Virus record (IMG/VR): IMGVR_UViG_2690316028_000007
DNA from: a virus
Taxonomy: Duplodnaviria > Heunggongvirae > Uroviricota > Caudoviricetes
DNA length: 21,361 bases
Strand: one strand, 5' to 3'
Both the position numbers and the translations under genes were made by a program. Each line of letters starts with the position of its first letter. Position 1 is the first letter of the stretch. Shown one piece after another: positions 1,525 to 21,007 of this stretch. The notes under the pieces are model-generated. The model had not been told where the DNA came from, did no database searches, and worked only from the letters and a program-made list of their open reading frames with translations.

Positions 1525-1614
1525 GAATAGATGTTCGGGCCTTACGCTAATGTAACTTCTTTCCTTCTTCGAACCAAACCGTGTACACCATCCGTTATCT
1601 GCGGAGGTGAGGCT

Positions 1615-1830
1615 ATGAAATCCATGGATAAGTTAACAACGGGCATCGCCTACAGCACCTCTGCAGGCAGTGCTGGCTACTGGTTTTTACAGTTGCTCGA
1701 TAAAGTCACGCCCTCACAGTGGGCGGCAATAGGTGTATTGGGTAGTCTGGTATTTGGCATGCTGACGTATCTGACAAACCTTTATTTCAAGATTAAAGAA
1801 GACAGGCGTAAGGTTGCGAGAAGAGAGTAA
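1615..1830 (+). CDS. essQ: Class II holin (phage 21 S-type pinholin), 71 aa, with dual-start motif Met1-Lys-Ser-Met4
   Basis: [28 protein letters not shown]...[17 protein letters not shown] closely matches the phage 21 S / EssD-EssQ holin as I recall it. Strong SD GGAGGTGAGG upstream of ATG 1615. Second in-frame ATG at 1624. Confidence 0.9.
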
Positions 1831-1834
1831 TCCA

Positions 1835-2386
1835 ATGACTCAAGACTATGAACTGGTTGTGAAAGGAGTTCGCAATTTTGAGAATAAAGTGGCGGTAACT
1901 GTAGCCTTACGGGACAAAAAACACTTTGACGGTGAAATTTTTGACCTGGACATCTCGCTGGACCGTGTTGAAGGTGCCGCGCTGGAGTTTTATGAGGCAG
2001 CAGCCAGAAGGAGCATCAGACAGGTCTTCCTGGATGTTGCTGCCGGGTTATGTGAAGGGGATGAGCAGTCGTCGGAAAAGCGCCCCATAATTTTAGAGGC
2101 GCAGAATGTGTGGATAACCTACAAAGGAAAGCTACCGGGAAGAATTACTGGTTCTCTGAAGACGCCACCGACGGCATTGCGGTCAGAAAAAGATGATATT
2201 GAATCGCCCATTGAAAAACTGGAGGGCAGCGTCGCTGATCTGAATAAAAAATTGTCGGTGCTGATTCCTTCTGAAGATGAAAAAAAACGCCGCGATGAGC
2301 AGTTTGCGGCGTTTTACGATTATTGCATTGAAGTTACTCGCAGGAATTTTGTGAAGATTTTTGAGGAGGGTAAATCTCTTCAGTAA
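1835..2386 (+). CDS. Hypothetical 183-aa protein inserted between holin and endolysin (possibly YdfR/DUF1327-like; unverified)
   Basis: ATG at 1835 lies 5 nt after the holin stop, preceded by AAGAGAG. Charged, non-membrane protein. Same strand as the lysis genes. Confidence 0.6.
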   Translation: MTQDYELVVKGVRNFENKVAVTVALRDKKHFDGEIFDLDISLDRVEGAALEFYEAAARRSIRQVFLDVAAGLCEGDEQSSEKRPIILEAQNVWITYKGKLPGRITGSLKTPPTALRSEKDDIESPIEKLEGSVADLNKKLSVLIPSEDEKKRRDEQFAAFYDYCIEVTRRNFVKIFEEGKSLQ

Positions 2387-2594
2387 GCTTATTGGCGGAC
2401 GCTGCAATTAATTCAGGAAGGTCCGCAAGGTCATCTGTCAGTGGATATGATGAAAAATCGGCGGCAGTTCTGTTAAGAAGCGCTTTAACTAATTCCTTTT
2501 CCTTCTCCGGCAACAAGTTGATTAGAGCTACGACTGCTTGCCTGAGTGCGATTAAATCAGCAAAAGTTTGTTTTGGTAGATTTGTGTAATCCAT
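2334..2594 (-). CDS. Hypothetical acidic 86-aa protein, antisense to the late operon; 3' end overlaps the preceding ORF by 53 bp
   Basis: ATG at 2594-2592 on the minus strand, preceded by AGG-containing CACAGAGGCGACT. Protein-like composition (LPEKEKELVKALLNRTAADF). No family recognised. Confidence 0.4.
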   Translation of the reverse strand: MDYTNLPKQTFADLIALRQAVVALINLLPEKEKELVKALLNRTAADFSSYPLTDDLADLPELIAASANKLTEEIYPPQKSSQNSCE

Positions 2595-2707
2595 AGTCGC
2601 CTCTGTGTTTATCAGATTGACATCCTCCTCCCGCCAGTGCCCATCACTGGTGAGGTAAGATTTAACATATCCGGGGATTTGAAGCCGATAAATCCTGATA
2701 AATATCC

Positions 2708-3735
<1,028 letters not shown>

Positions 3736-3986
3736 ATTAATATTAAATCGGATTATTTTTAGCGCTGAATGTGAAATTTAAATAAAAAGGACTCTTCCAT
3801 GAGTCAAAATCCTTGAAATCTTAAGGGTAAGATAAAAGGTCATTAGACAGAATGACACGTTTTATTAATAAATAAAGCTATTGTTTCATTCGTGTGTTTT
3901 TCTTTACAAAAGTAATCCTTGCTATGGTTGGTTAATCATGCGTTAATGGTGTTCTGGTTTGTTACAAAATTATCTGAAGCAGTCAT

Positions 3987-3995
3987 TGTTATAAT
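3987..3995 (+). promoter_or_regulatory. Candidate extended -10 element (TGtTATAAT) upstream of cspI
   Basis: TGTTATAAT read directly at 3987-3995, about 100 nt upstream of the cspI start. No good -35 found; csp genes usually have longer 5' UTRs, so the real promoter may lie further upstream. Confidence 0.3.
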
Positions 3996-4098
3996 TTTAT
4001 TATTTGTACCTCTTGAGATTTCCTTGTTGGTTTTTCTCTCTGATATTTTTTTTCGGACCATTCTGCCCAAGGGCTAACTTCTTCAAAAGGTAATAATG

Positions 4099-4311
4099 AT
4101 GTCTAACAAAATGACTGGTTTAGTGAAATGGTTTAACCCTGAAAAAGGTTTTGGTTTCATCACGCCGAAAGATGGTAGCAAAGATGTGTTTGTCCATTTC
4201 TCAGCTATTCAGAGCAACGATTTCAAAACGTTAACTGAGAATCAGGAAGTCGAATTTGGTATTGAGAACGGACCTAAAGGCCCCGCGGCTGTTCATGTTG
4301 TGGCACTTTGA
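4099..4311 (+). CDS. cspI: CspA-family cold-shock protein (70 aa)
   Basis: [38 protein letters not shown]... carries the canonical cold-shock RNP motifs. AAGG upstream. Tandem ATGs at 4096 and 4099. Long AT-rich leader. Adjacent to gnsB as in Qin. Confidence 0.9.
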
Positions 4312-4510
4312 GGTAGAAAATATTACAAACCATATTCACTTTAGATGCCCGTGTTGCCATGGTTCTCAGTATAGAACATCATCTTTTGATGTTTCTGACA
4401 GGAATCCTTTCGGGGCAAAATGTATCTTTTGTAAATCAATGATGATTACATTTGATAATATTTCACAATACTTAAATGTTAGCCGTCTGTCGTTAGATTT
4501 AAGAAAGTGA
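4295..4510 (+). CDS. Candidate zinc-ribbon small protein (CPCC...CIFC) between cspI and its terminator; start uncertain
   Basis: ORF contains [31 protein letters not shown] (CxxC-17-CxxC). The only in-frame ATG (4295) overlaps the cspI 3' end and has a poor SD. Lies upstream of the terminator at 4516-4538, so it would be co-transcribed with cspI. Confidence 0.3.
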
Positions 4511-4515
4511 AAATG

Positions 4516-4538
4516 AAGGCTCCTTCGGGAGCTTTTTT
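4516..4538 (+). terminator. Rho-independent terminator with UUCG tetraloop
   Basis: AAGGCTCC-TTCG-GGAGCTTT stem followed by TTTTTT. Confidence 0.65.
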
Positions 4539-4582
4539 GCTTAGTGTCTAGTCGATGGATACTCACATATTACGGTAACATT

Positions 4583-4813
4583 ATGAAAAAAATAATAGTT
4601 TTTTTTAACTCTGAACCAGCAATGGTAGTGCCAGTGATGACCGGAGTTAACACCATCATGCGTGAATATCCAAATGGCGAAACAACACACCTCACTGTAA
4701 TGGCTGCAGGGTTTCCATCTCTGACCGGAGATCATAAAGTCATTTATGTAGCAGCGGATCGACATGTAACTTCAGAAGAAATTCTGGAAGCAGCAATGAG
4801 ACTCTTGAATTGA
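4583..4813 (+). CDS. Hypothetical small protein (76 aa from ATG 4583; a GTG at 4544 is also possible)
   Basis: ORF MKKIIVFFNSEPAMVVPVMTGVNTIMREYPNGETTHLTVMAAG... Weak SD. Starts right after a terminator, so expression is uncertain. Could be the ynfN-like gene expected between cspI and gnsB. Confidence 0.35.
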   Translation: MKKIIVFFNSEPAMVVPVMTGVNTIMREYPNGETTHLTVMAAGFPSLTGDHKVIYVAADRHVTSEEILEAAMRLLN

Positions 4814-4985
4814 TTTGATTCTAATGCATTGATAATAAATGATAATCATCTTTATCTGTTTGTGTGAAATTTAGACCGTCGTATGTTGATTATTGCGATG
4901 TTTCATCTTATCTTTTATACGTTTGCTCCATATAATTGACACTACTGTGTACCAGGAAAGTCATAACAGACTAAAAGAGGAAATG

Positions 4986-5159
4986 ATGAACATTGAAGAG
5001 TTAAAAACAAAAACAGAAGCAGATATTTCTGAATATATAACAAAAAAAATCATTGAGCTTAAGAAAAAGACCGGGAAAGAAGTTACCAGTATCCAGTTTA
5101 CTGCACGGGAAAAAATGACTGGTCTTGAAAGCTATGATATCAAGATTGATTTAATCTAG
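4986..5159 (+). CDS. gnsB: GnsA/GnsB-family small protein (57 aa)
   Basis: MNIEELKTKTEADISEYITKKIIELKKKTGKEVTSIQFTAREKMTGLESYDIKIDLI closely resembles GnsA/GnsB as I recall them. Length 57 aa. An extra ATG at 4983 is possible. Confidence 0.85.
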   Translation: MNIEELKTKTEADISEYITKKIIELKKKTGKEVTSIQFTAREKMTGLESYDIKIDLI

Positions 5160-5224
5160 TCTGTTTATAGTATTAGCATCAATTTCTCATCAGATGCTAT
5201 TCAACAATACAAATTACCCATAAA

Positions 5225-5248
5225 CCTCGTTTTTACGGGGTTTTGTTA
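5225..5248 (+). terminator. Probable Rho-independent terminator downstream of gnsB
   Basis: CCTCG-TTTTTA-CGGGG (one G-U pair) followed by TTTTGTTATATTT. Confidence 0.45.
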
Positions 5249-5454
5249 TATTTAAACATTACCGAATAGGTATAAATCTCGATTGTCGATGGTATTGGTT
5301 GTGTGACAATACCTAATCTTTCCGGTATGCGTGAAGAGAATACAAACGACAGATTATGTAAGGGAAACGCGCTGAATCTTTCACTCTTTCATGCTGAGTG
5401 ATTTGACGTTATATTTTTAGCCGTAAGTGAAGAGCAAACGCATGGAGCGACAAA

Positions 5455-5661
5455 ATGCATAAAGATCAATACACTGATGCCCCCTCCCAGGAGCAGGTTC
5501 GTGTAAAAACTATGCTTAATAGCACCATTTCGATGGGTTACCCGGATGTTGTAATTGCATGTATAGAACATCAAGTGTCTCTGGAAGCATTCAGGGCAAT
5601 TGAGGCCGCGTTAGTAAAGCACGATAAGAATACGAAGGATTATTCCCTGGTGGTTGACTGA
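5455..5661 (+). CDS. Hypothetical 68-aa protein (position corresponds to ydfO/ynfO of Qin; possibly truncated)
   Basis: ATG at 5455 with GGAG 8 nt upstream. Stops in all three frames shortly after 5661, so it is not a simple frameshift of a longer gene. Confidence 0.5.
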
Positions 5662-5999
5662 TCACCATAACTGCTAACCATTCTGACCATTTCACAAGTG
5701 ACAGAGTCAATATCGTATTCTGTCACTGTCAGGCTAATACAGCAATGCAATTCAACTACAGCAATGCCTCGTATTTAGGTGAATTTACAATATCGTCCAG
5801 TTCGGATGCCGGCTGCATTTCTGAAGATAAGGCATTTCGGTTCTCGTATTTTCCCCTCATGCTCGTCAGTCCTGCGCGTAGTAAGAAACAGGACACTCAC
5901 ACTAATTTGTGTGGGCATGCAGTGATGTCCTTCTGAATTATCCCCATGCCATTATGTAAAGCTCTGTTACAGATGCTCGTCACGGTTGTCAGGCTGTCG

Positions 6000-6120
6000 G
6001 GTCCTCCCAGTGAGGGGCCCTGCCACGGGGCGGGAGCGTCGCGGAAAAAGGCTAGTTTTTGAAATTTTATTCGTCATCACCACTACTGTAATTGATTGGT
6101 ATTACAGTGGTTTTATTTTT
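6000..6120. other. Lambda-like cos site (cosN plus start of cosB) upstream of the Nu1-like gene
   Basis: ACG GGGCGGGAGCGT CGCGGAAAAAGG...GAAATTTTATTCGTCATCAC aligns with the remembered lambda end ACG GGGCGGCGACCT CGCGGGTTTTCG...GAAAATTTTCCG...TTCGTCATAAC. Lies about 190 bp upstream of the small terminase start, as in lambda. Confidence 0.55.
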
Positions 6121-6213
6121 ATGGTGTCGATTCTGATTGTTTTTTGTTCATCGCTAACACCGTTTGCCTAAAGTTGTTCGCAAGATGCATGTTTAAAACA
6201 TTCTGGAGCGGGT

Positions 6214-6708
6214 ATGGATCGAGAGTTAAAAAATCTGACGCTGAATATCAGTCAACTGGCGGCATTGTCAGGTGTACATCGCCAGACTGCTGCGGCAAGG
6301 CTGCAAAATCTACCCGTTGCAGGGGGGCATGAAAGCAACCTCAAGCTTTATCGGGTGGTTGATATTGTGTCGGCATTTCTGGCATTACCACCGCCGGTTG
6401 CAGAAGGCGAAATGGACGCGCATGAGCGCAAAGCCTGGTATCAGTCTGAACGTGAGCGTCTTAAGTTCGAACAGGAAACGGCACAACTCATTCCGGCCAG
6501 TGATGTCAGACGGGAGTTTGCCATCTGGGCAAAAGCGGTCGTGCAGGTGCTGGAGACATTACCGGATATTCTTGAACGTGACTGCGGTCTGCAGCCTGCC
6601 GCTGTGAGCCGTGTTCAGTCCATTATTGATGATCTGCGCGATCAGATAGCCCTGCGGGTGACTGAAGCAGGTGCGGATGATGAGGAGGAATTACAGCAGG
6701 AGGAGTAA
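6214..6708 (+). CDS. nohQ: Terminase small subunit (Nu1-like DNA-packaging protein)
   Basis: N-terminal HTH-like LTLNISQLAALSGVHRQTAAARLQ. GGAG 7 nt upstream. Stop overlaps the next start (TAATG). Position immediately after cos. Confidence 0.85.
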   Translation: MDRELKNLTLNISQLAALSGVHRQTAAARLQNLPVAGGHESNLKLYRVVDIVSAFLALPPPVAEGEMDAHERKAWYQSERERLKFEQETAQLIPASDVRREFAIWAKAVVQVLETLPDILERDCGLQPAAVSRVQSIIDDLRDQIALRVTEAGADDEEELQQEE

Positions 6709-7412
6709 TGCTGAATCAGGAAACCGCAAAGGCAGCACGAACCGATTCAGGTTATATCCTTCGCGCACCGAGACGAATGCGGGTTGCTGATGCCGTTGCT
6801 CAGTATATGCGGGTGCCCATGGGGGCAGGGAACTCAGTCCCGTGGGATCCGCTGGTGGCACCGTATGTTATTGAGCCTATGAACTGCCTGGCCTCGCGTG
6901 AATACGACGCAGTGATATTTGTTGGCCCGGCACGAACCGGCAAGACTATCGGCCTGATTGACGGCTGGGTGATTTACAACGTGATTTGCGATCCTGCGGA
7001 TATGCTGATCATTCAGATGACAGAGGAAAAAGCCCGCGAACACTCCAAAAAACGACTCGCCAGAACGTTTCGCGTCAGCCCGGAAGTGGTCAGTCGCCTG
7101 AGTCCGAACAAAAATGACAACAACGTTTATGACAGAACATTCCTTGCTGGCAACTACCTGAAAATCGGCTGGCCGTCAGTCAATATCATGTCCTCATCAG
7201 ATTATAAATGCGTCGCGCTGACGGATTATGACCGTTTTCCGGAAGATATTGATGGCGAGGGGGATGCCTTCTCTCTTGCCTCAAAACGTACCACCACATT
7301 TATGTCCAGCGGTATGACGCTGGTGGAGAGTTCCCCCGCTGGCCATGCAGATCCCGGCGTTTCGTCAGAAACTGAGCGACGGCTGGTACCAGGTACGCAT
7401 TGCCGGGCGTGA
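6708..7412 (+). pseudogene. Terminase large subunit, N-terminal ATPase fragment (Walker A GPARTGKT), truncated at a deletion junction near 7320-7345
   Basis: Translationally coupled to nohQ. P-loop motif VIFVGPARTGKT. The ORF runs into out-of-frame tail-gene sequence and ends after 234 codons, whereas intact large terminases are about 600-640 aa. Confidence 0.7.
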
Positions 7413-7857
7413 TGCAGGTGAAACCGAATTGTCTGCCCGTCTTAATGAGCCGCTGGCAAATGGTGCCGTGATCCACATCGTGCCGCGTCTGGCGGGAGCT
7501 AAAAGTGGCGGTGTGTTTCAGGTGGTGCTGGGGGCGGCGCTGATTGCGGTGGCATGGTGGAACCCTGTGGGCTGGCTGGGTGCCGCGGCTGTATCGGGCA
7601 TGTATGCGGCAGGGGCCAGTATGATCCTGGGCGGAGTGGCGCAGATGCTGGCACCGAAAGCCAGGACGCCCACGGCAGCAAGTACAGATAACGGCAAACA
7701 GAACACCTATTTCTCCTCACTGGATAACATGGTTGCCCAGGGCAATGTTCTGCCTGTTCTGTACGGGGAAATGCGCGTGGGGTCACGCGTGGTTTCTCAG
7801 GAGATCAGCACGGCAGACGAAGGGGACGGTGGTCAGGTTGTGGTGATTGGTCGCTGA
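7345..7857 (+). pseudogene. C-terminal fragment of lambda tail assembly protein I
   Basis: The tail ...LAPKARTP...DNGKQNTYFSSLDNMVAQGNVLPVLYGEMRVGSRVVSQEISTADEGDGGQVVVIGR matches the remembered lambda gpI C-terminus. Frame opens only at 7318, in a different frame from the terminase fragment. Confidence 0.75.
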
Positions 7858-7875
7858 TGCAAAATGTTTTATGTG

Positions 7876-7903
7876 AAACCGCCTGCGGGCGGTTTTGTCG
7901 TTT
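7876..7903 (+). terminator. Terminator-like hairpin between the I fragment and the tail-fibre gene
   Basis: AAACCGCC-TGCG-GGCGGTTTT followed by GTCGTTT. Confidence 0.45.
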
Positions 7904-7917
7904 ATGGAGCGTGAGGA

Positions 7918-10893
7918 ATGGGTAAAGGCAGCAGTAAGGGGCATACCCCGCGCGAAGCGAAGGACAACCTGAAATCCACGCAGCTGCTGAGTGTGATTGA
8001 TGCCATCAGCGAAGGGCCGGTTGAAGGTCCGGTGGATGGATTAAAAAGCGTGCTGCTGAACAGTACGCCGGTGCTGGACAGTGAGGGGAATACCAATATA
8101 TCCGGCGTCACGGTGGTGTTCCGGGCAGGTGAGCAGGAGCAGACTCCGCCGGAGGGGTTTGAATCCTCCGGCTCCGAGACGGTGCTGGGTACGGAAGTGA
8201 AATATGACACGCCGATCACCCGCACCATTACGTCGGCAAACATCGACCGTCTGCGCTTTACCTTCGGTGTACAGGCACTGGTGGAAACCACCTCAAAGGG
8301 TGACAGGAATCCGTCGGAAGTCCGCCTGCTGGTTCAGATACAGCGTAATGGTGGCTGGGTGACGGAAAAAGACATCACCATTAAGGGCAAAACCACCTCG
8401 CAGTATCTGGCCTCGGTGGTGGTGGATAACCTGCCACCGCGCCCGTTTAATATCCGGATGCGCAGAATGACGCCGGACAGCACCACAGACCAGCTGCAGA
8501 ACAAAACGCTCTGGTCGTCATACACCGAAATCATCGATGTGAAACAGAGCTACCCGAACACGGCACTGGTCGGCGTGCAGGTGGATTCGGAGCAGTTCGG
8601 CAGCCAGCAGGTGAGCCGTAATTATCATCTTCGCGGGCGTATTCTGCAGGTGCCGTCGAATTATAACCCGCAGACGCGGCAATACAGCGGTATCTGGGAC
8701 GGAACGTTTAAACCGGCATACAGCAACAACATGGCCTGGTGTCTGTGGGATATGCTGACCCATCCACGCTACGGCATGGGGAAACGTCTTGGTGCGGCGG
8801 ATGTGGACAAATGGGCGCTGTATGTCATCGGCCAGTACTGCGATCAGTCAGTACCGGACGGCTTTGGCGGCACGGAGCCGCGCATCACCTGTAATGCATA
8901 CCTGACCACACAGCGCAAGGCGTGGGATGTGCTCAGTGATTTCTGCTCGGCGATGCGCTGTATGCCGGTATGGAACGGGCAGACGCTGACGTTCGTGCAG
9001 GACCGACCGTCGGATAAGGTGTGGACCTATAACCGCAGTAATGTGGTGATGCCGGATGATGGCGCGCCGTTCCGCTACAGTTTCAGCGCCCTGAAAGACC
9101 GCCATAATGCCGTTGAGGTGAACTGGATTGACCCGGATAACGGCTGGGAGACGGCGACAGAGCTTGTTGAAGATACGCAGGCCATTGCCCGTTACGGTCG
9201 TAACGTCACGAAGATGGATGCCTTTGGCTGTACCAGCCGGGGGCAGGCGCACCGCGCCGGGCTGTGGCTGATTAAAACGGAACTGCTGGAAACGCAGACC
9301 GTGGACTTCAGCGTGGGTGCGGAAGGGCTTCGCCATGTACCGGGGGATGTCATTGAAATCTGCGATGATGACTATGCGGGTATCAGCACCGGCGGGCGCG
9401 TGCTGGCGGTGAACAGCCAGACCCGGACGCTGACGCTCGACCGTGAAATCACGCTGCCATCCTCCGGTACCACGCTGATAAGCCTGGTTGACGGTCAGGG
9501 TAATCCGGTCAGCGTGGAGGTCCAGTCCGTCACCGACGGCGTGAAGGTGAAAGTGAGCCGTGTTCCTGACGGCGTTGCAGAATACAGCGTGTGGGGGCTG
9601 AAGCTGCCGACGCTGCGCCAGCGCCTGTTCCGCTGCGTGAGTATCCGTGAGAACGATGACGGCACGTATGCCATCACCGCCGTGCAGCATGTACCTTCTG
9701 CCCGTAAGGTGAATGGTAAGGCGCTTTCAGCGGATATAACACTGACGCCGAAAGATATTGGTACGCTTAACTCAACAACAATGTCATTCAGCGGTGGTGC
9801 TGGTTGGTTCAAATTAGCAACGGTAACCATGCCACAGGCGAGTTCTGTTGTTTCAATTACGTTGATTGGTGGCGCGGGATTTAACGTGGGGTCACCTCAA
9901 CAGGCAGGTATATCTGAACTTGTTTTGCGTGCAGGTAATGGTAATCCGAAGGGGATTACTGGTGCTTTATGGCAGCGCACATCGACAGGGTTTACAAATT
10001 TTGCCTGGGTCAATACATCTGGTGATACTTACGATATTTACGTTGCAATCGGAAATTATGCGACTGGTGTAAATATTCAATGGGATTATACCAGTAATGC
10101 CAGCGTGACGATTCATACGTCACCAGCATATTCTGCTAATAAGCCGGAAGGGTTAACGGACGGTACAGTTTATTCACTCTATACGCCATCAGAGCAGTTT
10201 TATCCGCCTGGCGCACCAATCCCGTGGCCATCAGATACCGTTCCGTCTGGCTATGCCCTGATGCAGGGGCAGACTTTTGACAAATCTGCATACCCGAAAC
10301 TTGCAGCCGCTTATCCGTCAGCCGTGATCCCTGATATGCGTGGCTGGACGATTAAGGGCAAACCCGCCAGTGGTCGTGCCGTATTGTCTCAGGAACAGGA
10401 CGGCATTAAATCGCACACCCACAGCGCCAGCGCATCCAGTACGGATTTGGGGACGAAAAACACATCGTCGTTTGATTACGGAACCAAATCCACGAATAAC
10501 ACCGGGGCGCATACCCATAGTATTAGCGGGACTGCAAATAGTGCCGGTGCGCACCAACACAAGAGTTCCGGTGCATTTGGTGGCACGAACACGAGCATTT
10601 TCCCTAATGGTTATACCGCGATTTTAAATCTAAGCGCGGGGATTATGAGCACAACAAGCGGTAGTGGCCAGACTCGTAATGCAGGGAAGACATCATCAGA
10701 TGGTGCTCATACCCACTCGCTGTCCGGCACTGCTGCAAGCGCAGGCGCACATGCACATACTGTCGGTATTGGTGCTCATACGCACTCCGTTGCGATTGGT
10801 TCACATGGACACACCATCACCGTTAACGCTGCTGGTAACGCGGAAAACACCGTCAAAAACATCGCATTTAACTATATTGTGAGGCTTGCATAA
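7918..10893 (+). CDS. stfQ: Chimeric tail fibre: lambda J (host-specificity protein) N-terminal about 597 aa fused in frame to a side-tail-fibre C-terminus with tail-collar-like region and HxH repeats
   Basis: N-terminus [34 protein letters not shown]... matches lambda J as remembered, up to ...AITAVQHVP (about nt 9700). Thereafter the protein diverges and GC content drops. C-terminus has GAHTHS/GAHAHT/GSHGHT repeats and ends [25 protein letters not shown] upstream of the ATG. Confidence 0.85.
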
Positions 10894-11468
10894 TGGCATT
10901 CAGAATGAGTGAACAACCACAGACCATAAAAATTTATAATCTGCTGGCCGGAACTAATGAATTTATTGGTGAAGGTGACGCATATATTCCGCCTCATACA
11001 GGTCTGCCAGCAAACAGTACCGATATTGCACCGCCAGATATTCCGGCAGGCTTCGTGGCTGTTTTCAACAGTGATGAGGCATCGTGGCATCTCGTTGAAG
11101 ATCATCGGGGAAAAACCGTCTATGACGTGGCTTCCGGCGACGCGTTATTTATTTCTGAACTCGGTCCGTTACCGGAAAATGTTACCTGGTTATCGCCGGA
11201 AGGGGAGTTTCAGAAGTGGAACGGCACAGCCTGGGTGAAGGATACGGAAGCAGAAAAACTGTTCCGGATCCGGGAGGCGGAAGAAACAAAAAACAACCTG
11301 ATGCAGGTAGCCAGTGAGCATATTGCGCCGCTTCAGGATGCTGCAGATCTGGAAATTGCAACGGAGGAAGAAATCTCGTTGCTGGAAGCATGGAAAAAGT
11401 ATCGGGTATTGCTGAACCGTGTTGATACGTCAACTGCACAGGATATTGAATGGCCAGCACTGCCGTAG
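10893..11468 (+). CDS. tfaQ: Tail fibre assembly chaperone (lambda Tfa-like)
   Basis: [54 protein letters not shown]... is nearly identical to lambda Tfa as remembered. Start overlaps the stf stop (TAATG). Confidence 0.9.
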
Positions 11469-11565
11469 GGTAAAACATATAAATTCTATAATTAGATGTA
11501 TCTTTCCATTTACGGCAAGGAAGGGGGCTTGGAACACGTAAAGCATCTCACACCGAGATTATTTT

Positions 11566-12156
11566 TTATATGTCAGGTGTCTGAAGTTTTGCTTTGGCTC
11601 TTAAAATGGTTTGCCGCGAGGTTTTGAATTCCCGGGCAATGGCACTTATACTTACACCTGACTTAATTCGTTCGAATACCACCTGTTTCTGTTCTTCATT
11701 TAACACAGGTGGTCGACCAAAACGTTTCCCTGCGCCGCGGGCTCTTACTATCCCGGAATGAGTGCGTTCAAGTAAAAGGTCTCGTTCAAATTCAGCGACT
11801 GCTGAAATTACTTGCATCATCATTTTTCCTGTTGGACTGGTCAGGTCAATGCCACCCAATGCTAAGCAATGCACTCTGATACCTGTTTCGGTCAGTTGTT
11901 CCACTGTTTTCCTGATATCCATTGCATTACAACCAAGGCGATCCAGTTTTGTCACAATCAATTGATCACCACATTTCAGGCGAGCAAGCAACCGGTTAAA
12001 ACCAGGACGCTCACTGGTTGCTGCTGAGCCGCTAATGTGTTCTTCGATTATTTGCTGAGGTTTGATTTTAAAACCTGCACTTTCGATTTCCCGGCGTTGA
12101 TTTTCGGTGGTCTGATCCAGCGTTGATATCCGACAGTAAGCAAAAATTCGAGACAT
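11566..12156 (-). CDS. pinQ: Serine recombinase of the resolvase/invertase family (Pin-like DNA invertase)
   Basis: N-terminal catalytic motif [11 protein letters not shown]-terminal HTH. 196 aa. Position next to tfa as in Qin/Rac. Confidence 0.9.
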
Positions 12157-12473
12157 AGTGAGACTCTATTCGAAATTGGTGTTCATATCATAATGCATCT
12201 CAGAAAATAATTATGATTATTTTTGTGCATATTTGTATGTACACGTTCGAAAATAAACGAATGCGTATGCAACCCCGTAATTTTTGGTGAGACCCAAAAT
12301 CGATTTTGTGAAAAATGGCTTTAACTCGGTTTGTTTTTCGAGTTCCGGGCGGACTCAAGGAAGAAGAATAGTGTTGCGTGTTATTTTAACCAGATTTCAA
12401 GTTGTTTGGACGTGGAAAAGTGGAGCAAAATGTTGTTAAAGTGGAAAAATGATAAAAAAGTAAGTTTATTATA

Positions 12474-12707
12474 TTACATTTTACCATTTAAATTTTGGTT
12501 GTCTTTAAGAACTGATATCGCTGTTTGTAATAATTCTTTGTTATCCAGCCATGATTTTTTCTTTATGTTTCCTTCAATGTAATCAAGCAATGTTCTGGTA
12601 TTAATAGGTCTTCCCTGTTTTGCTACTTCCACTACAGCATCCCCTAGGATAATTCTTACTTCAGGAAGCTGCGCAGGGAACCACTTTAGGGTGTCTTTTG
12701 ATTTCAT
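12474..12707 (-). CDS. ydfK: YdfK/YnaE-family small prophage protein (77 aa), reported as cold-shock induced
   Basis: MKSKDTLKWFPAQLPEVRIILGDAVVEVAKQGRPINTRTLLDYIEGNIKKKSW... ATG at 12707 preceded by AAGGA. The longer 88-aa start has no SD. Long AT-rich upstream region. Confidence 0.85.
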   Translation of the reverse strand: MKSKDTLKWFPAQLPEVRIILGDAVVEVAKQGRPINTRTLLDYIEGNIKKKSWLDNKELLQTAISVLKDNQNLNGKM

Positions 12708-13207
12708 GAAGATATTCCTTAAAATATTATTGATTTTCATTGCGATATTGTATGTCTGATTCAGGATATGTTGACTTATACATCGGTTTTGTCTGGGTTA
12801 TTGGATATGCCAATCCCTAATTTTATTAGGGCATGACTAAAAATGCTGAATATGATAAGGAGAGAAGTGATTATCAGTATGCTGTTCATATAGCCTCGAA
12901 TTAGTAATGTGTTATATATGATATAGTTGACAATTTTTATCTTGGGTGTTTTTAAAGTTCGTAGATAAACATTGTCGTTTCAGGTATACAGGAATGCTAG
13001 CAGGTGGCAGCAAAAATCAGGCGGTTTATGGCGCAAGCTGAAGCGGCAACTGCAAACTATCTTATGCAGAGACTCTACACGGATTGGGTTTAAAAGTATA
13101 CATAGATAACAGTTTTTATCTGAAAAAGAAAAATATCAAGGTGATATAGCCTATATGCCTTTGATGCGGAGGAATGACTGTGATGGGAGTGATGTATCTG
13201 AATAGTT

Positions 13208-13247
13208 GAAAAACCGCAGACACGCCTTATGCAAGAACGTGCTGCGG
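13208..13247 (-). terminator. Candidate minus-strand Rho-independent terminator about 250 bp inside the prophage end (possible tI/sib analogue)
   Basis: CCGCAG(A)CACG ... CGTG-CTGCGG imperfect 10-bp stem with 13-nt loop, followed on the minus strand by TTTTTCAAC. Confidence 0.4.
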
Positions 13248-13492
13248 TTGGCTGGTAAATTTTTCGATAGTGTGAGTATTGAATGATTTCCAGCCGTTCT
13301 TGATTTTACGCATAAATCCATGAAAAAACTACTTATCTGTTGGGGAGTTTTTTTGGGGCATATATGGGACAGAAATAGGCCCCAGATAGACACTGAGATC
13401 GAACTTAGGATGCTTTTTAAAAAATGCAACTATCTGAAAAAACCTAGAAAACGCCAAGGAAACCACAGGATGGGAAAAAACACCTGTGAATT

Positions 13493-14776
13493 ATGGATTT
13501 CCAGTTATATTCGCTCGGCGCAGCGTTAGTGTTTCATGAAATATTTTTTCCTGAATCATCAACGGCAATGGCGTTAATTCTGGCAATGGGAACCTATGGT
13601 GCAGGTTATGTGGCGCGTATTGTCGGAGCATTTATTTTCGGCAAAATGGGCGACAGAATAGGGCGTAAAAAAGTGCTCTTTATTACCATCACCATGATGG
13701 GGATCTGTACCACCTTAATTGGAGTGTTACCGACCTATGCACAGATTGGTGTTTTTGCCCCCATCTTGCTGGTGACGCTGCGTATTATTCAGGGATTGGG
13801 TGCAGGTGCGGAAATTTCCGGTGCCGGTACGATGCTGGCGGAATATGCGCCAAAAGGTAAGCGCGGAATTATCTCCTCATTTGTGGCTATGGGAACTAAC
13901 TGCGGAACCTTAAGCGCAACGGCAATCTGGGCCTTTATGTTCTTCATTCTCAGTAAAGAGGAACTGCTGGCGTGGGGATGGCGTATACCGTTCCTGGCGA
14001 GCGTTGTCGTGATGGTCTTTGCTATCTGGTTACGTATGAATCTGAAAGAAAGCCCGGTCTTTGAGAAGGTTAACGACAGCAACCAACCGACAGCAAAACC
14101 TGCACCTGCTGGTAGCATGTTCCAGAGCAAATCCTTCTGGCTGGCAACAGGGCTGCGTTTTGGTCAGGCGGGTAACTCCGGTTTAATTCAGACTTTCCTT
14201 GCAGGCTATTTAGTACAGACGTTATTGTTTAACAAAGCAATTCCAACAGATGCATTGATGATCAGTTCGATTCTCGGCTTTATGACCATTCCGTTCCTTG
14301 GTTGGTTATCCGATAAAATTGGTCGCCGGATCCCGTATATTATTATGAATACCTCTGCGATTGTGCTGGCGTGGCCAATGCTTTCTATCATCGTAGATAA
14401 AAGCTATGCCCCGAGCACCATTATGGTTGCACTGATTGTGATTCATAACTGTGCGGTGCTGGGATTATTTGCTCTGGAAAACATTACCATGGCAGAAATG
14501 TTCGGCTGTAAAAACCGCTTTACCCGGATGGCTATTTCAAAAGAAATTGGTGGTCTTATCGCTTCCGGTTTTGGTCCTATCCTGGCGGGTATTTTCTGCA
14601 CCATGACGGAATCCTGGTATCCGATCGCCATTATGATCATGGCATATTCAGTAATTGGTTTAATCTCTGCGCTGAAAATGCCAGAGGTGAAAGACCGTGA
14701 TTTAAGTGCGCTGGAAGACGCTGCGGAAGATCAACCGCGTGTTGTAAGAGCTGCGCAACCTTCCAGAAGTCTGTAA
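13493..14776 (+). CDS. ydfJ: MFS transporter of the metabolite:H+ symporter family (ProP/ShiA-like); reading frame opens only at 13490, consistent with loss of about 40 N-terminal residues at the prophage junction
   Basis: 427-aa ORF with MFS signatures (GKMGDRIGRKKVL, 12-TM-like hydrophobic profile). An in-frame TGA sits immediately upstream at 13487-13489. Starts at a motif (DFQLY) that in relatives lies about 45 aa into the protein. Confidence 0.8.
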   Translation: MDFQLYSLGAALVFHEIFFPESSTAMALILAMGTYGAGYVARIVGAFIFGKMGDRIGRKKVLFITITMMGICTTLIGVLPTYAQIGVFAPILLVTLRIIQGLGAGAEISGAGTMLAEYAPKGKRGIISSFVAMGTNCGTLSATAIWAFMFFILSKEELLAWGWRIPFLASVVVMVFAIWLRMNLKESPVFEKVNDSNQPTAKPAPAGSMFQSKSFWLATGLRFGQAGNSGLIQTFLAGYLVQTLLFNKAIPTDALMISSILGFMTIPFLGWLSDKIGRRIPYIIMNTSAIVLAWPMLSIIVDKSYAPSTIMVALIVIHNCAVLGLFALENITMAEMFGCKNRFTRMAISKEIGGLIASGFGPILAGIFCTMTESWYPIAIMIMAYSVIGLISALKMPEVKDRDLSALEDAAEDQPRVVRAAQPSRSL

Positions 14777-14787
14777 ATCCTCAATCC

Positions 14788-14813
14788 CTTCTCTTACCGG
14801 AGAGGGGATTTTT
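14788..14813 (+). terminator. Probable Rho-independent terminator after ydfJ
   Basis: CCTTCTCT-TACCGG-AGAGGGG stem (with G-U pairs) followed by ATTTTTATT. Confidence 0.5.
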
Positions 14814-14864
14814 ATTCATATAACAAAACATATAGCTTGCCATATTTATATTTAAGGAATTGTT

Positions 14865-16325
14865 ATGGGAAATAATTTGTTATCAGCAAAAGCGACACTC
14901 CCTGTTTATGATCGTAATAACCTGGCCCCAAGAATTATTCATTTAGGCTTTGGTGCATTTCACCGTGCGCATCAGGGCGTGTATGCCGATATTCTTGCTA
15001 CAGAACATTTCAGTGACTGGGGATATTATGAGGTCAACTTAATCGGCGGCGAACAGCAAATTGCCGATTTACAACAGCAAGATAATCTTTATACCGTTGC
15101 GGAAATGTCGGCCGATGCGTGGACGGCTCGCGTCGTTGGCGTCGTTAAAAAAGCCTTGCACGTACAGATGGATGGCTTAGAAACCGTGTTGGCTGCGATG
15201 TGTGAACCGCAAATCGCGATTGTCTCTCTGACAATCACCGAAAAAGGGTATTTCCACTCTCCGGCGACCGGACAGTTAATGCTCGATCACCCGATGGTCG
15301 CTGCCGACGTGCAAAATCCCCACCAGCCGAAAACAGCAACAGGAGTGATTGTTGAGGCGCTGGCTCGCCGTAAAGCGGCAGGACTTCCCGCATTTACCGT
15401 CATGTCATGTGACAACATGCCAGAAAACGGTCATGTTATGCGTGACGTTGTCACTTCCTACGCGCAAGCCGTTGATGAAAAACTGGCACAATGGATCGAA
15501 GATAACGTGACTTTCCCATCAACAATGGTGGACCGTATTGTGCCCGCAGTGACAGAGGATACGCTGGCGAAAATCGAACAACTTACCGGTGTGCGCGATC
15601 CTGCGGGCGTTGCCTGTGAACCTTTCCGCCAGTGGGTAATAGAAGATAACTTTGTTGCCGGACGTCCGGAATGGGAAAAAGCGGGAGCCGAACTGGTTAG
15701 CGATGTGCTGCCTTATGAAGAGATGAAGTTGCGCATGCTCAACGGCAGTCATTCATTCCTGGCGTATCTGGGGTATCTTGCTGGATATCAGCACATTAAT
15801 GACTGCATGGAAGATGAACATTATCGTTATGCGGCGTATGGCTTGATGTTGCAGGAACAAGCGCCGACGCTGAAAGTGCAGGGCGTTGATTTGCAAGATT
15901 ACGCTAACCGATTAATTGAACGCTATAGCAACCCGGCGTTACGCCATCGAACCTGGCAGATTGCGATGGATGGCAGCCAGAAATTGCCACAGCGGATGTT
16001 GGATTCTGTTCGCTGGCATCTGGCGCATGACAGCAAGTTCGAGCTGCTGGCACTGGGCGTCGCGGGTTGGATGCGTTATGTCGGTGGTGTTGATGAACAG
16101 GGAAATCCGATTGAAATCAGTGACCCACTGTTACCTGTTATTCAGAAGGCTGTACAAAGTAGTGCCGAAGGGAAAGCGCGCGTCCAGTCATTGCTGGCGA
16201 TTAAGGCGATTTTTGGTGATGATTTGCCAGATAATAGCTTGTTTACTGCAAAAGTGACGGAAGCGTACTTGTCTTTATTAGCGCATGGTGCGAAAGCGAC
16301 CGTGGCGAAATATTCCGTGAATTAA
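14865..16325 (+). CDS. ydfI: Mannitol-dehydrogenase-family oxidoreductase (D-mannonate/fructuronate oxidoreductase-like)
   Basis: 486 aa. N-terminal Rossmann motif [15 protein letters not shown] typical of the long-chain mannitol dehydrogenase family. AAGGA SD. Synteny with ydfJ and ydfZ. Confidence 0.9.
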
Positions 16326-16352
16326 AAAAGCAATGCCGCCATCGGCGGCATT
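16326..16352 (-). terminator. Rho-independent terminator for ydfZ (A-tract on the plus side, T-tract on the minus side)
   Basis: AATGCCGCC-ATC-GGCGGCATT 9-bp stem; on the minus strand followed by GCTTTTTTAAT. Confidence 0.55.
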
Positions 16353-16359
16353 CACACGC

Positions 16360-16563
16360 TTAGTTCATGCCGAGACGAATCAGGTCCAGAGGTGCCAGTT
16401 TCTCTTCACAACCTTCAACAACTACGGTTTTTCCGCGGCGGATTTGCTCAGCGGTCAGACCTTCAGTATCAATCGACAGGATCTTGCCAGTGTGACCGGT
16501 GCCGCTAACCATAACACGGCTGCCAGTGGTGATTGCGTTACGGTTACGATCGTAGGTCGTCAT
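16360..16563 (-). CDS. ydfZ: YdfZ-family small protein (putative selenium-binding protein), 67 aa
   Basis: [54 protein letters not shown]... AAGGAG SD upstream. Synteny. Confidence 0.85.
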
Positions 16564-16644
16564 AGGTGTTTTCTCCTTTCTGATTTACAGTCGAAGCCCA
16601 CGTAACGGGCGCAATATAAATACTCCTGTCGAGTGAAATATTTT

Positions 16645-16658
16645 TTGTTTTTGATCAA
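16645..16658 (-). promoter_or_regulatory. Candidate FNR/CRP-type site (TTGAT-N4-AACAA on the minus strand) upstream of ydfZ
   Basis: Plus strand reads TTGTT-tttg-ATCAA, about 85-100 bp upstream of the ydfZ start. Consensus TTGAT-N4-ATCAA matched 9/10. TATTTATATT -10-like sequence downstream on the minus strand. Confidence 0.35.
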
Positions 16659-16699
16659 GCTCACATCTTTTTTGATGCATGCATGAGCCGTAAGGCGGG

Positions 16700-16732
16700 G
16701 GGAAAAGCCTCTCATCCCGGATGGGATGAGAG
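16700..16732 (-). terminator. Rho-independent terminator for ydfH
   Basis: CCTCTCATCCC-GGAT-GGGATGAGAG 10-bp stem; on the minus strand followed by CTTTTCCCCCC. Confidence 0.6.
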
Positions 16733-16740
16733 TAAATGAA

Positions 16741-17427
16741 TTACTCTTCGCTAAACCAGTCGCTGTTTTCCTGGCGGATCTGGCGCACGGATTCGCTGAT
16801 TTCCTGCAAATGTTGCGTCATTGCACGTTCTACCGCATCGCCATCACGTTTTTGCAGGGCAGAGAAAATATCAAGATGCTGGCGTAACAGCATTTCTGGT
16901 GGAGAAACATGGTCGAAACTCATATAGCGCACGCGATCAACGGTCGCTTTCAGGTTCTCAATGGTATCCCACGCCAGTTGACAGTCGGCAATCTGCGTCA
17001 GGAGTTGATGGAAGTTGTCATCAAGTTCAAAAAAATCATCCAGTTGCTTGCGCTCAATGGCAATGCGTTGCTGGTGAAGATTTTGTTCCAGTTGGTAGCA
17101 CTGGCTTTCGGTAATCATGCTCGCCGCCCGACGCGCCACCGCGCACTCAATGGCCTGACGGATAAAACTGCCGTTTCGCACCTGGGCCATGGAAATTTTG
17201 TTGACGTAGCTGCCACGCTGCGGACGAATTTGAATCAGGCCGTTTTCCGCCAGTTTAATAAAGGCTTCACGAACCGGCTGGCGTGACACATTGAAACGAA
17301 CAGAAACTTCTTTTTCCGACAACGGTGTGCCTGGAGCAATCAGGCAATGGACAATGTCGCGACGAAGGATACGATAAATTTGCTGATTGACAGGCTGTGT
17401 GGGATTAAGTTGCGTTTCGACGGTCAT
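16741..17427 (-). CDS. ydfH: GntR/FadR-family transcriptional regulator
   Basis: 228 aa. N-terminal GntR-type winged HTH ([38 protein letters not shown]), C-terminal FadR-like helical domain. Synteny with ydfG and dcp. Confidence 0.9.
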
Positions 17428-17489
17428 TCGTTCTTGCTTGTGAGTGAGTTAACTGCATGAGTCTACCACTTTTTTGTGACAAGCAATAA

Positions 17490-17507
17490 CCCGGCAGTTA
17501 CGCCGGG
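17490..17507 (-). terminator. Candidate terminator hairpin just downstream of ydfG
   Basis: CCCGGC-AGTTAC-GCCGGG stem; on the minus strand followed by TTATTGCTTG. Confidence 0.4.
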
Positions 17508-17515
17508 TATAAAAA

Positions 17516-18262
17516 TTACTGACGGTGGACATTCAGTCCGGCATAGCTTTGGGTAACCGGCATCATTTCCAGGGTATTGATATTGACGTGAGCAGGCAGC
17601 GTTGACACCCACCAAACGGCTTCGCTGACATCTTCTGGCGTCAATGCAACGGTATTTTGATAGGTTTTTTCCGCTTTACCGTCATCGCCTTTAAAGCGGA
17701 CATTGGAAAACTCGGTGCCACCCACCAGACCCGGTTCGATGTCGGTGACGCGCACCGCCGTACCATGCAGGTCCGTACGCAGATTCAGGCTAAACTGACG
17801 AACAAACGCTTTCGTCGCACCGTAAACGTTACCACCGGCATACGGCCAGCTACCTGCCGTTGAGCCAATGTTAATAATATGACCATGATTACGTTCAACC
17901 ATACCCGGTAAGACGGCGCGCGTCATATATACCAGGCCTTTGTTGTTGGTATCAATCATCGTTTCCCAGTCTTCAACGCTGGCTTTATGCGCAGGCTCCA
18001 TGCCCAACGCCAGGCCGGCATTATTTACCAGGATATCAATATTGCACCACTCGGCAGGAAGCGATGCCAGCATCTCTTCAATAGCGGCGCGGTTGCGAAC
18101 GTCCAGTTGGGCGATATACAGATTATCTCCCAGTTCGTCTTTTAACTCCTGCAACCGCTCCTGGCGACGGCCAGTGGCGATAACTTTATGCCCTTGTTGA
18201 ATAAAACGACGAGTAATGCATTCACCAAAACCTGCCGTTGCTCCAGTTACTAAAACGATCAT
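17516..18262 (-). CDS. ydfG: Short-chain dehydrogenase/reductase (NADP-dependent 3-hydroxy acid dehydrogenase / malonic semialdehyde reductase type)
   Basis: 248 aa from ATG 18262 (the track start at 18277 is a TTG). SDR motifs TGATAGFG and YGATKAF. Synteny. Confidence 0.9.
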   Translation of the reverse strand: MIVLVTGATAGFGECITRRFIQQGHKVIATGRRQERLQELKDELGDNLYIAQLDVRNRAAIEEMLASLPAEWCNIDILVNNAGLALGMEPAHKASVEDWETMIDTNNKGLVYMTRAVLPGMVERNHGHIINIGSTAGSWPYAGGNVYGATKAFVRQFSLNLRTDLHGTAVRVTDIEPGLVGGTEFSNVRFKGDDGKAEKTYQNTVALTPEDVSEAVWWVSTLPAHVNINTLEMMPVTQSYAGLNVHRQ

Positions 18263-18398
18263 CTCACTGTTCCTCAACGCTTTTGTGTGTCAATAACATA
18301 GCACGTGATGCTTAAGAGCGGGTAATACTGGTTTGCAAGATTGCACTCCGTTATCAGTAAGCCTACGCTATGGAACATCTCGCGTTCAGGAGAAGAAA

Positions 18399-20444: not shown

Positions 20445-20455
20445 ACACCACCAAT

Positions 20456-20485
20456 GGCTGGCCTGGAGATATCGCCAGGCCAGCC
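20456..20485. terminator. Strong hairpin between convergent dcp and ydeJ (likely bidirectional terminator; no strong U-tract)
   Basis: GCTGGCCTGG-AGATATCG-CCAGGCCAGC, 10-11 bp perfect stem. Confidence 0.45.
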
Positions 20486-20488
20486 TGG

Positions 20489-21007
20489 TTATAGCAGTAA
20501 TTGCAGCAGCTGGACGAGGGCAAACCTCACCGCTAAAGCTAATACCGTTTCGCAGTCGCCAGCAAAATGCATAACCGCAGTGTAGGTCTGGCCTTTAATA
20601 TGCCACGCGAACCAGACGGTACCCGCTGGCGTACCATCTTCACCGCCCTCCGGTCCGCCGTAGCCGGTAATGGCAATACTGACATCAGCATCCGCACGCT
20701 CTATGGCACCTGTTGCCATTTCTGCTGCCACTTTCTCACTCACCGCAGAATATCGTTCAAGAGATTGCTGGCTTACGCTGAGGATTTTCATCTTTGCCTG
20801 ATCGGTGAAAGTAACAAAGCCTGCACCGTAAAATTTGGGTGTATCTTCAGCTGCACACAGGGCGCTAGCCAACTTACCGCCGGTGCATGATTCGGCGGTA
20901 GTTAAGCGTAATTGATCCGCGATAAGTCTTTGACTCAACGCGGATGTCAGGTTTTCAATAGTGTCGGTATCTGCGAGTTGTACAATTTTATCTTTATTAA
21001 TGTTCAC
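20489..21007 (-). CDS. ydeJ: CinA-family (C-terminal domain, PncC-like) protein
   Basis: 172 aa. Motifs TTAESCTGGKLASAL and ITGYGGPEG typical of the CinA C-terminal domain. Convergent with dcp as in K-12. Confidence 0.85.
   Translation of the reverse strand: MNINKDKIVQLADTDTIENLTSALSQRLIADQLRLTTAESCTGGKLASALCAAEDTPKFYGAGFVTFTDQAKMKILSVSQQSLERYSAVSEKVAAEMATGAIERADADVSIAITGYGGPEGGEDGTPAGTVWFAWHIKGQTYTAVMHFAGDCETVLALAVRFALVQLLQLLL

Follow-up and report, generated by a model that had tools for sequence, protein, structure and literature searches.

A terminase fragment joined to tail gene I in a Qin-site prophage of Escherichia coli: a probable single deletion upstream of a recurrent TA-centred site in stf

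How can a terminase gene run directly into a tail assembly gene, as it does in the prophage DNA analysed here (IMGVR_UViG_2690316028_000007, 21,361 nucleotides, the whole of which is called the window below)? A first-pass annotation, made from the letters alone, had read this arrangement as the scar of a deletion between the large terminase gene and the lambda-type gene I, and it is asked here whether this is so, where the ends of the deletion lie, and by what kind of recombination they might have been joined. Judging from its flanks and gene order, the window represents a lambdoid prophage that interrupts ydfJ, the Qin site of the E. coli chromosome. The locus was placed by whole-window and local searches of 5,426 complete E. 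coli genomes. ydfJ is interrupted by the prophage and is followed by ydfI, ydfZ, rspR, ydfG and dcp; in addition to this ydfJ site beside ydfI-ydfG-dcp, both the essQ-ydfR-rrrQ-rzpQ-cspI-gnsB block and the tfaQ-pinQ-ydfK-ynfT right arm, which mark the Qin locus, are present. Two strains, MB53 (NZ_CP073939.1) and KE58 (NZ_CP141075.1), have intact prophages at the same locus and with the same gene order, which match the flanks of the scar at 99.3-100% identity. They keep the 13,215 bp that the window lacks, including 14 complete head and tail genes, a 700-aa terminase and a 215-aa gpI, and, unlike the window, they also keep full J, lom and stf. Survival of the late region at the Qin site varies greatly between strains: the head and tail module is complete in MB53 and KE58, part of the tail genes is missing in MS10495, everything from portal to stf has been lost in association with an IS in QDFD216, which has ISEc31 at its own junction, and the small terminase gene is joined straight to stf in strain I4.

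What is left of the terminase genes on the left side of the junction? The gene for the small terminase subunit, which is of the DUF1441 type, is intact (6214-6708, plus strand, 164 aa; Pfam DUF1441, E 3e-41; PHROG 141, terminase small subunit, E 7e-74) and has no nucleotide difference from that of MB53 over 495 nt. The following gene is the 5′ remnant of a large terminase gene of the gpA type. Its ORF spans 6708-7412 in the ORF list and would encode 234 aa; 6708-7338 on the plus strand comprises codons 1-210 and one nucleotide of a 700-codon gene, and 7339-7412 is an out-of-frame tail, 24 codons read from gene I DNA up to a TGA at 7410-7412. Residues 1-210 match PHROG 15 (terminase large subunit) and the match stops at 210, while residues 41-223 match positions 2-186 of the 247 in Pfam GpA_ATPase (E 1e-52), a match which reaches beyond the end of the PHROG match to include junction-adjacent residues. 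The Walker A motif, GPARTGKT at residues 73-80, aligns with KSARVGYS of lambda gpA, and a Walker B-like VALTDYD is retained as well; the ORF list, Pfam and PHROG together bear out the earlier description of a terminase frame of 234 codons with Walker A. The fragment is without the final third of the ATPase domain and without the entire nuclease domain: no Pfam match to GpA_nuclease is found in the window ORF, whereas the full-length homologue of 700 aa has GpA_ATPase at 41-304 and GpA_nuclease at 326-644. Might the ORF instead encode a naturally short terminase-like protein, an outcome that had been named beforehand as fatal to the deletion reading? This is excluded, since many E. coli genomes have full-length terminase genes of 2,103 nt whose initial 631 nt agree with the DNA of 6708-7338 at 99.9% identity, and these full-length relatives carry both ATPase and nuclease domains. 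Compared with MB53, the fragment has one synonymous difference in 630 nt. As far as domain content tells, the terminase gene of the window is a fragment of a member of the gpA-type family and not a functional member. Its likeness to lambda itself is distant: the fragment can be aligned to gpA over residues 22-200, Walker A among them, at 26% identity, and the small subunit with which it is paired is of the DUF1441 type, in place of lambda Nu1.

On the right side, a second frame, which is closed by a TGA at 7315-7317 and open from 7318, carries the 3′ remnant of tail assembly gene I (7339-7857, plus strand, codons 43-215 of 215). If an ATG start is required, the longest ORF in it is 7345-7857 (170 aa), and this ATG at 7345 corresponds to the internal Met46 of gpI. 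That this ORF really comes from gene I, a second point on which the deletion reading could have failed, is evident from its 73% identity to lambda gpI residues 47-223 (E 7e-92) and from the DNA of the remnant, which is 100% identical, with 0 nucleotide differences, to the 3′ 518 nt of the I gene in MB53. The remnant covers positions 38-83 of the 83 in Pfam Lambda_tail_I (PF06805), that is, the second half only, and positions 37-202 of the 203 in PHROG 32 (E 3e-67); the first 42 codons, and with them about half of the PF06805 domain, are absent. The overlapping frame open at 7318 had been said to encode the C-terminus of lambda I. Both the frame and the match were right, but the remnant is larger than a mere C-terminus: 173 of the 215 residues are kept, namely the C-terminal 80%.

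Where exactly do the two parental sequences meet? Alignment to the intact Qin-site prophage of MB53 equates window 3815-7338 with MB53 5372-8895 (99.3%) and window 7337-9695 with MB53 22109-24467 (99.7%), so that 13,215 bp are absent from the window; KE58 coordinates give the identical figure. In the three-way alignment, the breakpoint lies at 7337/7338, where a 2-bp CG is common to both parents. At the base level, the terminase parent runs to ...GTTCCCCCG and the gene I parent begins CGCTGGCCATG..., and beyond the CG the two parental sites have no similarity to each other. The left endpoint falls after codon 210 plus one nucleotide of the 700-codon terminase gene and the right endpoint within codon 43 of the 215-codon I gene; the frames of the two remnants differ by one, so that they are out of frame at the junction. 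Alignment at the DNA level to a complete lambdoid prophage has thus located the exact breakpoint and its CG microhomology, inside the bracket of 7318-7345 which had been proposed for it. The size of the gap, once put at about 15 kb, was close but too large: 13,215 bp are missing here, and on the lambda map the corresponding interval is about 13.6 kb long. According to the ORF list, the reading frames and a motif search, neither a transposase or IS remnant nor a repeat nor an invertase-type site is present at the scar junction. A scan of 5600-8100 for promoters and terminators returned sites no more numerous than in shuffled controls.

The deleted interval in MB53 contains 14 whole head and tail genes, for a W-like connector, the portal, a ClpP-protease/capsid fusion, a DUF2190 protein, a 91-aa head completion protein, Z-, U- and V-like proteins, G, T, the tape measure, M, L and K. 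By function, head-tail connector, head completion, tail tube and chaperone genes are among them. The remaining part of the terminase gene, including the nuclease domain, and the first 42 codons of I are deleted together with these 14 genes. All the genes which had been listed as missing (the C-terminal part of the terminase, portal, protease/capsid, tail tube, tape measure, L and K) are indeed found in the 13.2 kb of MB53. It is to be noted that the head module of the parental phage is of the ClpP-protease/capsid fusion type and differs from the C/Nu3/E module of lambda. What remains in the cryptic element is the lysis cassette, the csp and gns genes, the small terminase gene, a J-Stf remnant, the tail fibre assembly gene tfaQ (10893-11468, plus strand, assigned by gene calls and Pfam Caudo_TAP on identical contigs and by annotation of homologous loci) and pinQ. 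Probably, an ancestor like the prophages of MB53 and KE58 lost the 13,215 bp in one internal deletion, upon which the terminase ORF came to run 24 codons into gene I and stop, and I was left as a 5′-truncated fragment. Such a prophage could neither cut and package DNA nor build heads and tails, and would be fixed in the chromosome as a cryptic element; the gene content suggests in the same way that formation of virus particles has been lost. That prophages turn cryptic through internal deletions, which strand them, is textbook knowledge.

How widely is this junction distributed? A 121-bp query across it found no place covering at least 80% of its length in the 5,426 complete E. coli genomes, and exact-junction scans of GTDB species representatives and of JGI metagenome contigs gave no match. 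In an exact-protein index, the exact 234-aa fusion ORF is listed in 131 blocks of public assemblies, and it was read on at least 25 independent contigs from NCBI, ENA and Logan; scar-bearing contigs are up to 126 kb long and have chromosomal flanks, and the carriers include the isolates behind GCA_037022425.1 and ERR13324414. All five carrier contigs that were aligned have the identical junction and, further deletions aside, are 99.96-100% identical to the window over 7-13 kb. The junction is genuine and is carried by one closely related lineage. Since the remnants are undecayed, with 0-1 nucleotide differences over 495, 630 and 518 nt, the event seems to be recent. Do its endpoints recur elsewhere? 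Each flank was scanned in IMG/VR, with counts that include other loci examined as well. The right flank in gene I is preceded by normal I sequence in all but 6 of its 127 copies, and the left flank in the terminase gene continues as terminase in all but 6 of its 129 copies; in both cases the six belong to the window lineage, which provides the sole non-canonical partners in these 127 and 129 copies, and no recurrence of either endpoint is seen.

Very probably, a single illegitimate, that is, homology-independent, recombination joined terminase codon 210/211 to codon 43 of I and gave rise to the cryptic prophage. The features expected of such a deletion are all found: the parental sequences are contiguous in an intact relative and overlap by 2 bp only, the junction is free of IS elements, repeats and recombinase sites, and the endpoints do not recur. 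It is the lack of an IS, a repeat or a hotspot at either endpoint that gives the event the appearance of an isolated illegitimate one, and deletion mediated by an IS is excluded, no IS being found at or near 7338. Either replication slippage or end joining assisted by microhomology may have operated; the 2-bp overlap, which is near the chance expectation for any blunt joining, is too short to tell the mechanism. Must the 13.2 kb have been lost at once? Several successive nested deletions, of which the last left the junction now seen, are conceivable, as the same clonal lineage lost further late-region segments later, on contigs otherwise 99.96-100% identical (in window coordinates, 9384-10764 in L007-L009 and 7925-11305 in L011), and other strains show many different partial deletions at the Qin locus. 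However, no intermediate state was found, the five aligned carriers share one junction, the IMG/VR sampling contains no other non-canonical partner for either flank, and one event is more parsimonious. A stepwise origin of the gap is therefore regarded as unlikely, though it deserves mention before all other alternatives to a single deletion.

A further junction, of quite another character, follows 2.3 kb downstream of the scar. J and stf are fused in frame there, giving an ORF for 991 aa (7918-10893, plus strand) which consists of J codons 1-592 and the last 399 codons of Stf; the junction is GTACC at 9691-9695, and 4,135 bp including lom are missing. Its right endpoint is a recurrent hotspot centred on TA, stf site 1 (...GGTCGGG-TA-CCTTCTGCCCGTAAGG...). 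In IMG/VR and complete genomes, this site is joined to 21 unrelated upstream sequences, 20 of them with TA and one with CA, and the partners that could be mapped lie in the tape measure gene, K, J, lom, stf, the W-like gene, the capsid gene and the DUF1441 gene. The parental partners mostly have TA themselves; two TG became TA, and one CA stayed CA. One of the site-1 events is an inversion; the metagenome that contains it also contains its exact reciprocal junction, and between the two not a single base has been added or removed (L048 and L137). When the scan was reversed, the canonical right half followed the left flank of site 1 in 108 of 109 copies, the exception being this reciprocal inversion junction. 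A second site in stf has the same left motif (...GGTCGGG-TA-(A/G)CCGCGCTGAC...) and occurs in another 13 partner contexts; TA is present in each of these, and the nohA-stfQ junction of K-12 Qin is among them. Among the 34 pooled partner sites a weak C-G-G consensus is seen at positions -4 to -2, which echoes the primary CGGG-TA, and the nested deletions in the window lineage join CGGG-TA-T to TCGG-TA-T and GGG-TA-A to AGG-TA-G.

By these sequence features, the hotspot pattern looks like conservative site-specific recombination: a strict 2-bp overlap with tolerance of one mismatch, which may be resolved either way, the occurrence of deletions together with a precise reciprocal inversion, and a weak consensus at the partners are what would be expected if a serine recombinase used one primary site together with quasi-sites. 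Quasi-sites of Cin offer a precedent, in the form in which they are cited in PMC4134206 (Iida and Hiestand-Nauer, 1986, 1987). No description of the hotspot was found in the literature searched, the coverage of which is incomplete; a search with the motif GGTCGGGTA returned unrelated primer sequences only, and a search for invertases and side-tail-fibre deletions returned classical Din-type inversion systems only.

Which enzyme could act at such sites? The obvious candidate is PinQ/PinR, encoded just downstream. In the window, PinQ is a small serine recombinase of 196 aa (11566-12156, minus strand), a candidate for the TA-type junctions and not for the terminase-I scar. It shares 38% identity with PinE, the invertases of phages 2H10, mEp460_ev081 and Tritos have exactly its sequence (100% identity), and its best solved relatives, Gin invertase and gamma-delta resolvase, are about equally distant from it. 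PinQ was reported to be active in trans on the P segment of e14 (Kirigo et al., 2025, PMC12529663). A pinQ-type gene is found within 5 kb in 11 of 15 rearranged copies versus 28 of 83 canonical ones (Fisher p = 0.008, ignoring shared ancestry). Against PinQ/PinR, functional phages with an identical PinQ carry a single stf-tfa set, and the stf hotspot site is unlike Din-type crossover sites, whose consensus is 26 bp with an AAACC-NN-GGTTT core (hix/gix/cix/pix; PMC4134206). The pix sequence of e14 was derived for comparison with the junctions. A search of the window with AAACCNNGGTTT gave one match, with one mismatch, at 5222-5233, which is a chance-level number and lies at no junction; a Din-type (pix) site at the junctions is excluded, neither junction of the window resembling a Din crossover site. 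When inverted repeats were sought between the stf site and the spacer from tfaQ to pinQ, the score did not exceed that of the forward control, and none of the loci examined contained a second, inverted copy of the stf site.

Could the reaction behind the J-stf junction have made the terminase-I junction as well, with PinQ/PinR as the candidate enzyme and with quasi-sites that have CG in place of TA? Conservative TA-centred recombination is seen in these very prophages, pinQ lies in cis 4.2 kb downstream of the scar, and CG is palindromic like TA and present in both parents. The hotspot junctions, however, have TA in 33 of 34 cases, CA in one and CG in none; the GGTCGGG-TA motif is in neither parental site of the scar, neither scar endpoint recurs in other genomes, and other plain deletions at such loci, with ATC or AA microhomology, are equally unspecific. 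It is very improbable that this reaction made the junction, and the broader proposition, in which a recombinase, with PinQ/PinR as candidate, would actively dismantle Qin/Rac-type prophages by the GGTCGGG-TA reaction, and the nohA-stfQ junction of K-12 and, through CG quasi-sites, the scar would be among its products, has hardly a better chance. Lastly, the absence of the junction from the complete E. coli genomes, the GTDB representatives and the JGI contigs might raise a suspicion of an assembly or chimera artefact, or of a native mosaic that never held the missing genes, but the identical junction stands on independent NCBI, ENA and Logan contigs with chromosomal flanks, both flanks are near-identical to one intact prophage at the same locus, and both remnants are broken off in mid-domain, so that this suspicion can practically be dismissed.

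Is the single deletion preferred here shared with the best-known prophage of the locus? Qin of K-12 MG1655 (b1543-b1579 region) occupies the same site, with ydfJ interrupted and flanks from ydfI to dcp. Its lysis/csp/gns block is 87-93% identical to window 1586-5157, its right arm (stf 3′ end, tfaQ, pinQ, ydfK and ynfT) is 98.8% identical to window 10196-20780, and head and tail genes have been lost in both prophages. For packaging, however, it has a cos-nu1 (nohA) module of the lambda type (97.9% identity to lambda 57-719) and no DUF1441/gpA genes, and its deletion leads from the third codon of gene A to stfQ, with no terminase ATPase fragment and no remnant of I or J. The K-12 junction is of the TA-hotspot type (GAATA-TA-ACCGCG), whereas the terminase-I junction of the window is not. 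The first-pass annotation had left it to this comparison whether the deletion endpoints are shared or independent, and they turn out to be independent, since packaging module and breakpoints both differ; for the same reason a common origin of the scar with the nohA-stfQ junction is excluded. Independent fusions of terminase N-terminal fragments are also found in other strains, to I in EC21Z-137 and to K in W13-16; in the PGAP annotation, both are partial pseudogenes. The breakpoint is at terminase nt 459 in EC21Z-137 and CT29, with a TACC-like microhomology, and at nt 823 in W13-16 and ETEC strains, where the terminase gene is joined to K with an ATC microhomology, as compared with nt 631 in the window. 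These prophages are more diverged from the window (95-96%), that of W13-16 being at another locus, and the likeness of their deletions to the one in the window is largely a matter of ascertainment, because the query selected for them.

What does the scar tell us, then? In itself it is of minor importance, a case of ordinary prophage decay. It is an exact marker of one lineage, not found in the 5,426 complete genomes and common to a set of near-identical contigs, and with the later nested deletions it anchors a series in which stepwise decay is visible. It also serves as an internal negative control, its endpoints being unique, against the highly recurrent TA-centred site downstream. This hotspot is more interesting than the scar and merits a follow-up of its own: if confirmed, it would indicate that a small serine recombinase has a recombination site not hitherto recognised, and it would explain the loss of late genes from many Rac/Qin-type prophages, including Qin of K-12.

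Besides the terminase-I junction, a second deletion scar is found in the window. An open reading frame at 7918-10893 joins codons 1-592 of J in frame to the last 399 codons of the side tail fibre gene stf, so as to encode a J-Stf fusion product of 991 aa. The junction lies at 9691-9695, with a TA at 9692-9693, and 4,135 bp are missing there, lom being among the losses. It is to be noted that the right endpoint of this scar, stf GGTCGGG-TA-CCTTCTGCC, is a recurrent hotspot: in IMG/VR and complete genomes, 21 partners, all different and unrelated, are found attached to it, and the TA is present in 20 of these 21 junctions. Such a pattern looks like that of a conservative, site-specific recombination in which the overlap is 2 bp. 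A Din-type pix site was considered for this hotspot and rejected, as the stf site does not match it.

A second site of this kind is seen in stf through the nohA-stfQ junction of the Qin prophage in K-12 MG1655 (NC_000913.3, about 1,635,800), which reads GAGTGAATA-TA-ACCGCGCTGAC. Its left side is codon 3 of a lambda-type gene A, and its right side is the second stf site, AAAGGTCGGG-TA-ACCGCGCTGAC, for which 13 partner contexts are found, that of K-12 itself and 12 others, with the TA in all of them. Among the partner sites of the hotspots, a weak CGG consensus stands immediately to the left of the TA.

How exact can the exchange be? In one case, both products of a single event are available. 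Two contigs of the same IMG metagenome (3300029469), L048 and L137, preserve at 4159-4177 and 62-80, respectively, both junctions, reciprocal to each other, of one inversion, whose parents are the TA site in stf and a TA on the opposite strand in the portal region (11635-11636 of L006, the locus with the intact Qin-site prophage of E. coli MB53). The exchange is exact to the single base, and no other sign points as strongly to conservative recombination, and not break repair, as the nature of the reaction at the hotspot.

A candidate enzyme for the TA-type junctions is PinQ, a small serine recombinase encoded at 11566-12156 on the minus strand. The invertases of 2H10, mEp460_ev081, Tritos and HannyBb, which are isolated lambdoid phages and presumably functional, share 100% identity with it. 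In these four phages with the identical PinQ, its gene sits after a single stf-tfa pair, and no alternative inverted tail fibre cassette is present. A pinQ-type gene is more common in cis with rearranged than with canonical stf copies (p = 0.008, uncorrected).

Further losses are nested in this region among public contigs of the window lineage: L007-L009 are devoid of window 9384-10764, and L011 of 7925-11305. All of them share the terminase-I junction and are 99.96-100% identical outside the nested deletions, whose microhomologies, GGTAT and GGTA, lie at CGG(G)-TA-like sites. The nested losses represent decay by steps inside a single lineage. Elsewhere in the window, about 660 bp at the 3' end of ydfR (2035-2697) are missing from both K-12 and MB53; this segment lengthens YdfR to about 183-190 aa, and contains on the reverse strand an 86-aa open reading frame (2334-2594) matching PHROG 2572, whose function is unknown.

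Fusions are also seen in other strains. In E. coli W13-16, a truncated lom runs into a gene for a head spike fibre domain, TTCAGCTA|ACAGCGCAC; the junction (L001, 12170-12200) closes with CTA directly before the unrelated fibre sequence, and may be an additional TA-type site. In E. coli JKHS016, PGAP labels the product of L013 3214-6222 (1,002 aa) as 'terminase gpA endonuclease subunit' and takes it to be intact. In reality, about 600 aa of a lambda-type terminase are followed in frame by the last ~403 aa of Stf, and the join falls at the TA hotspot. Such a chimera is a trap for annotation, passing as an intact gene in PGAP.
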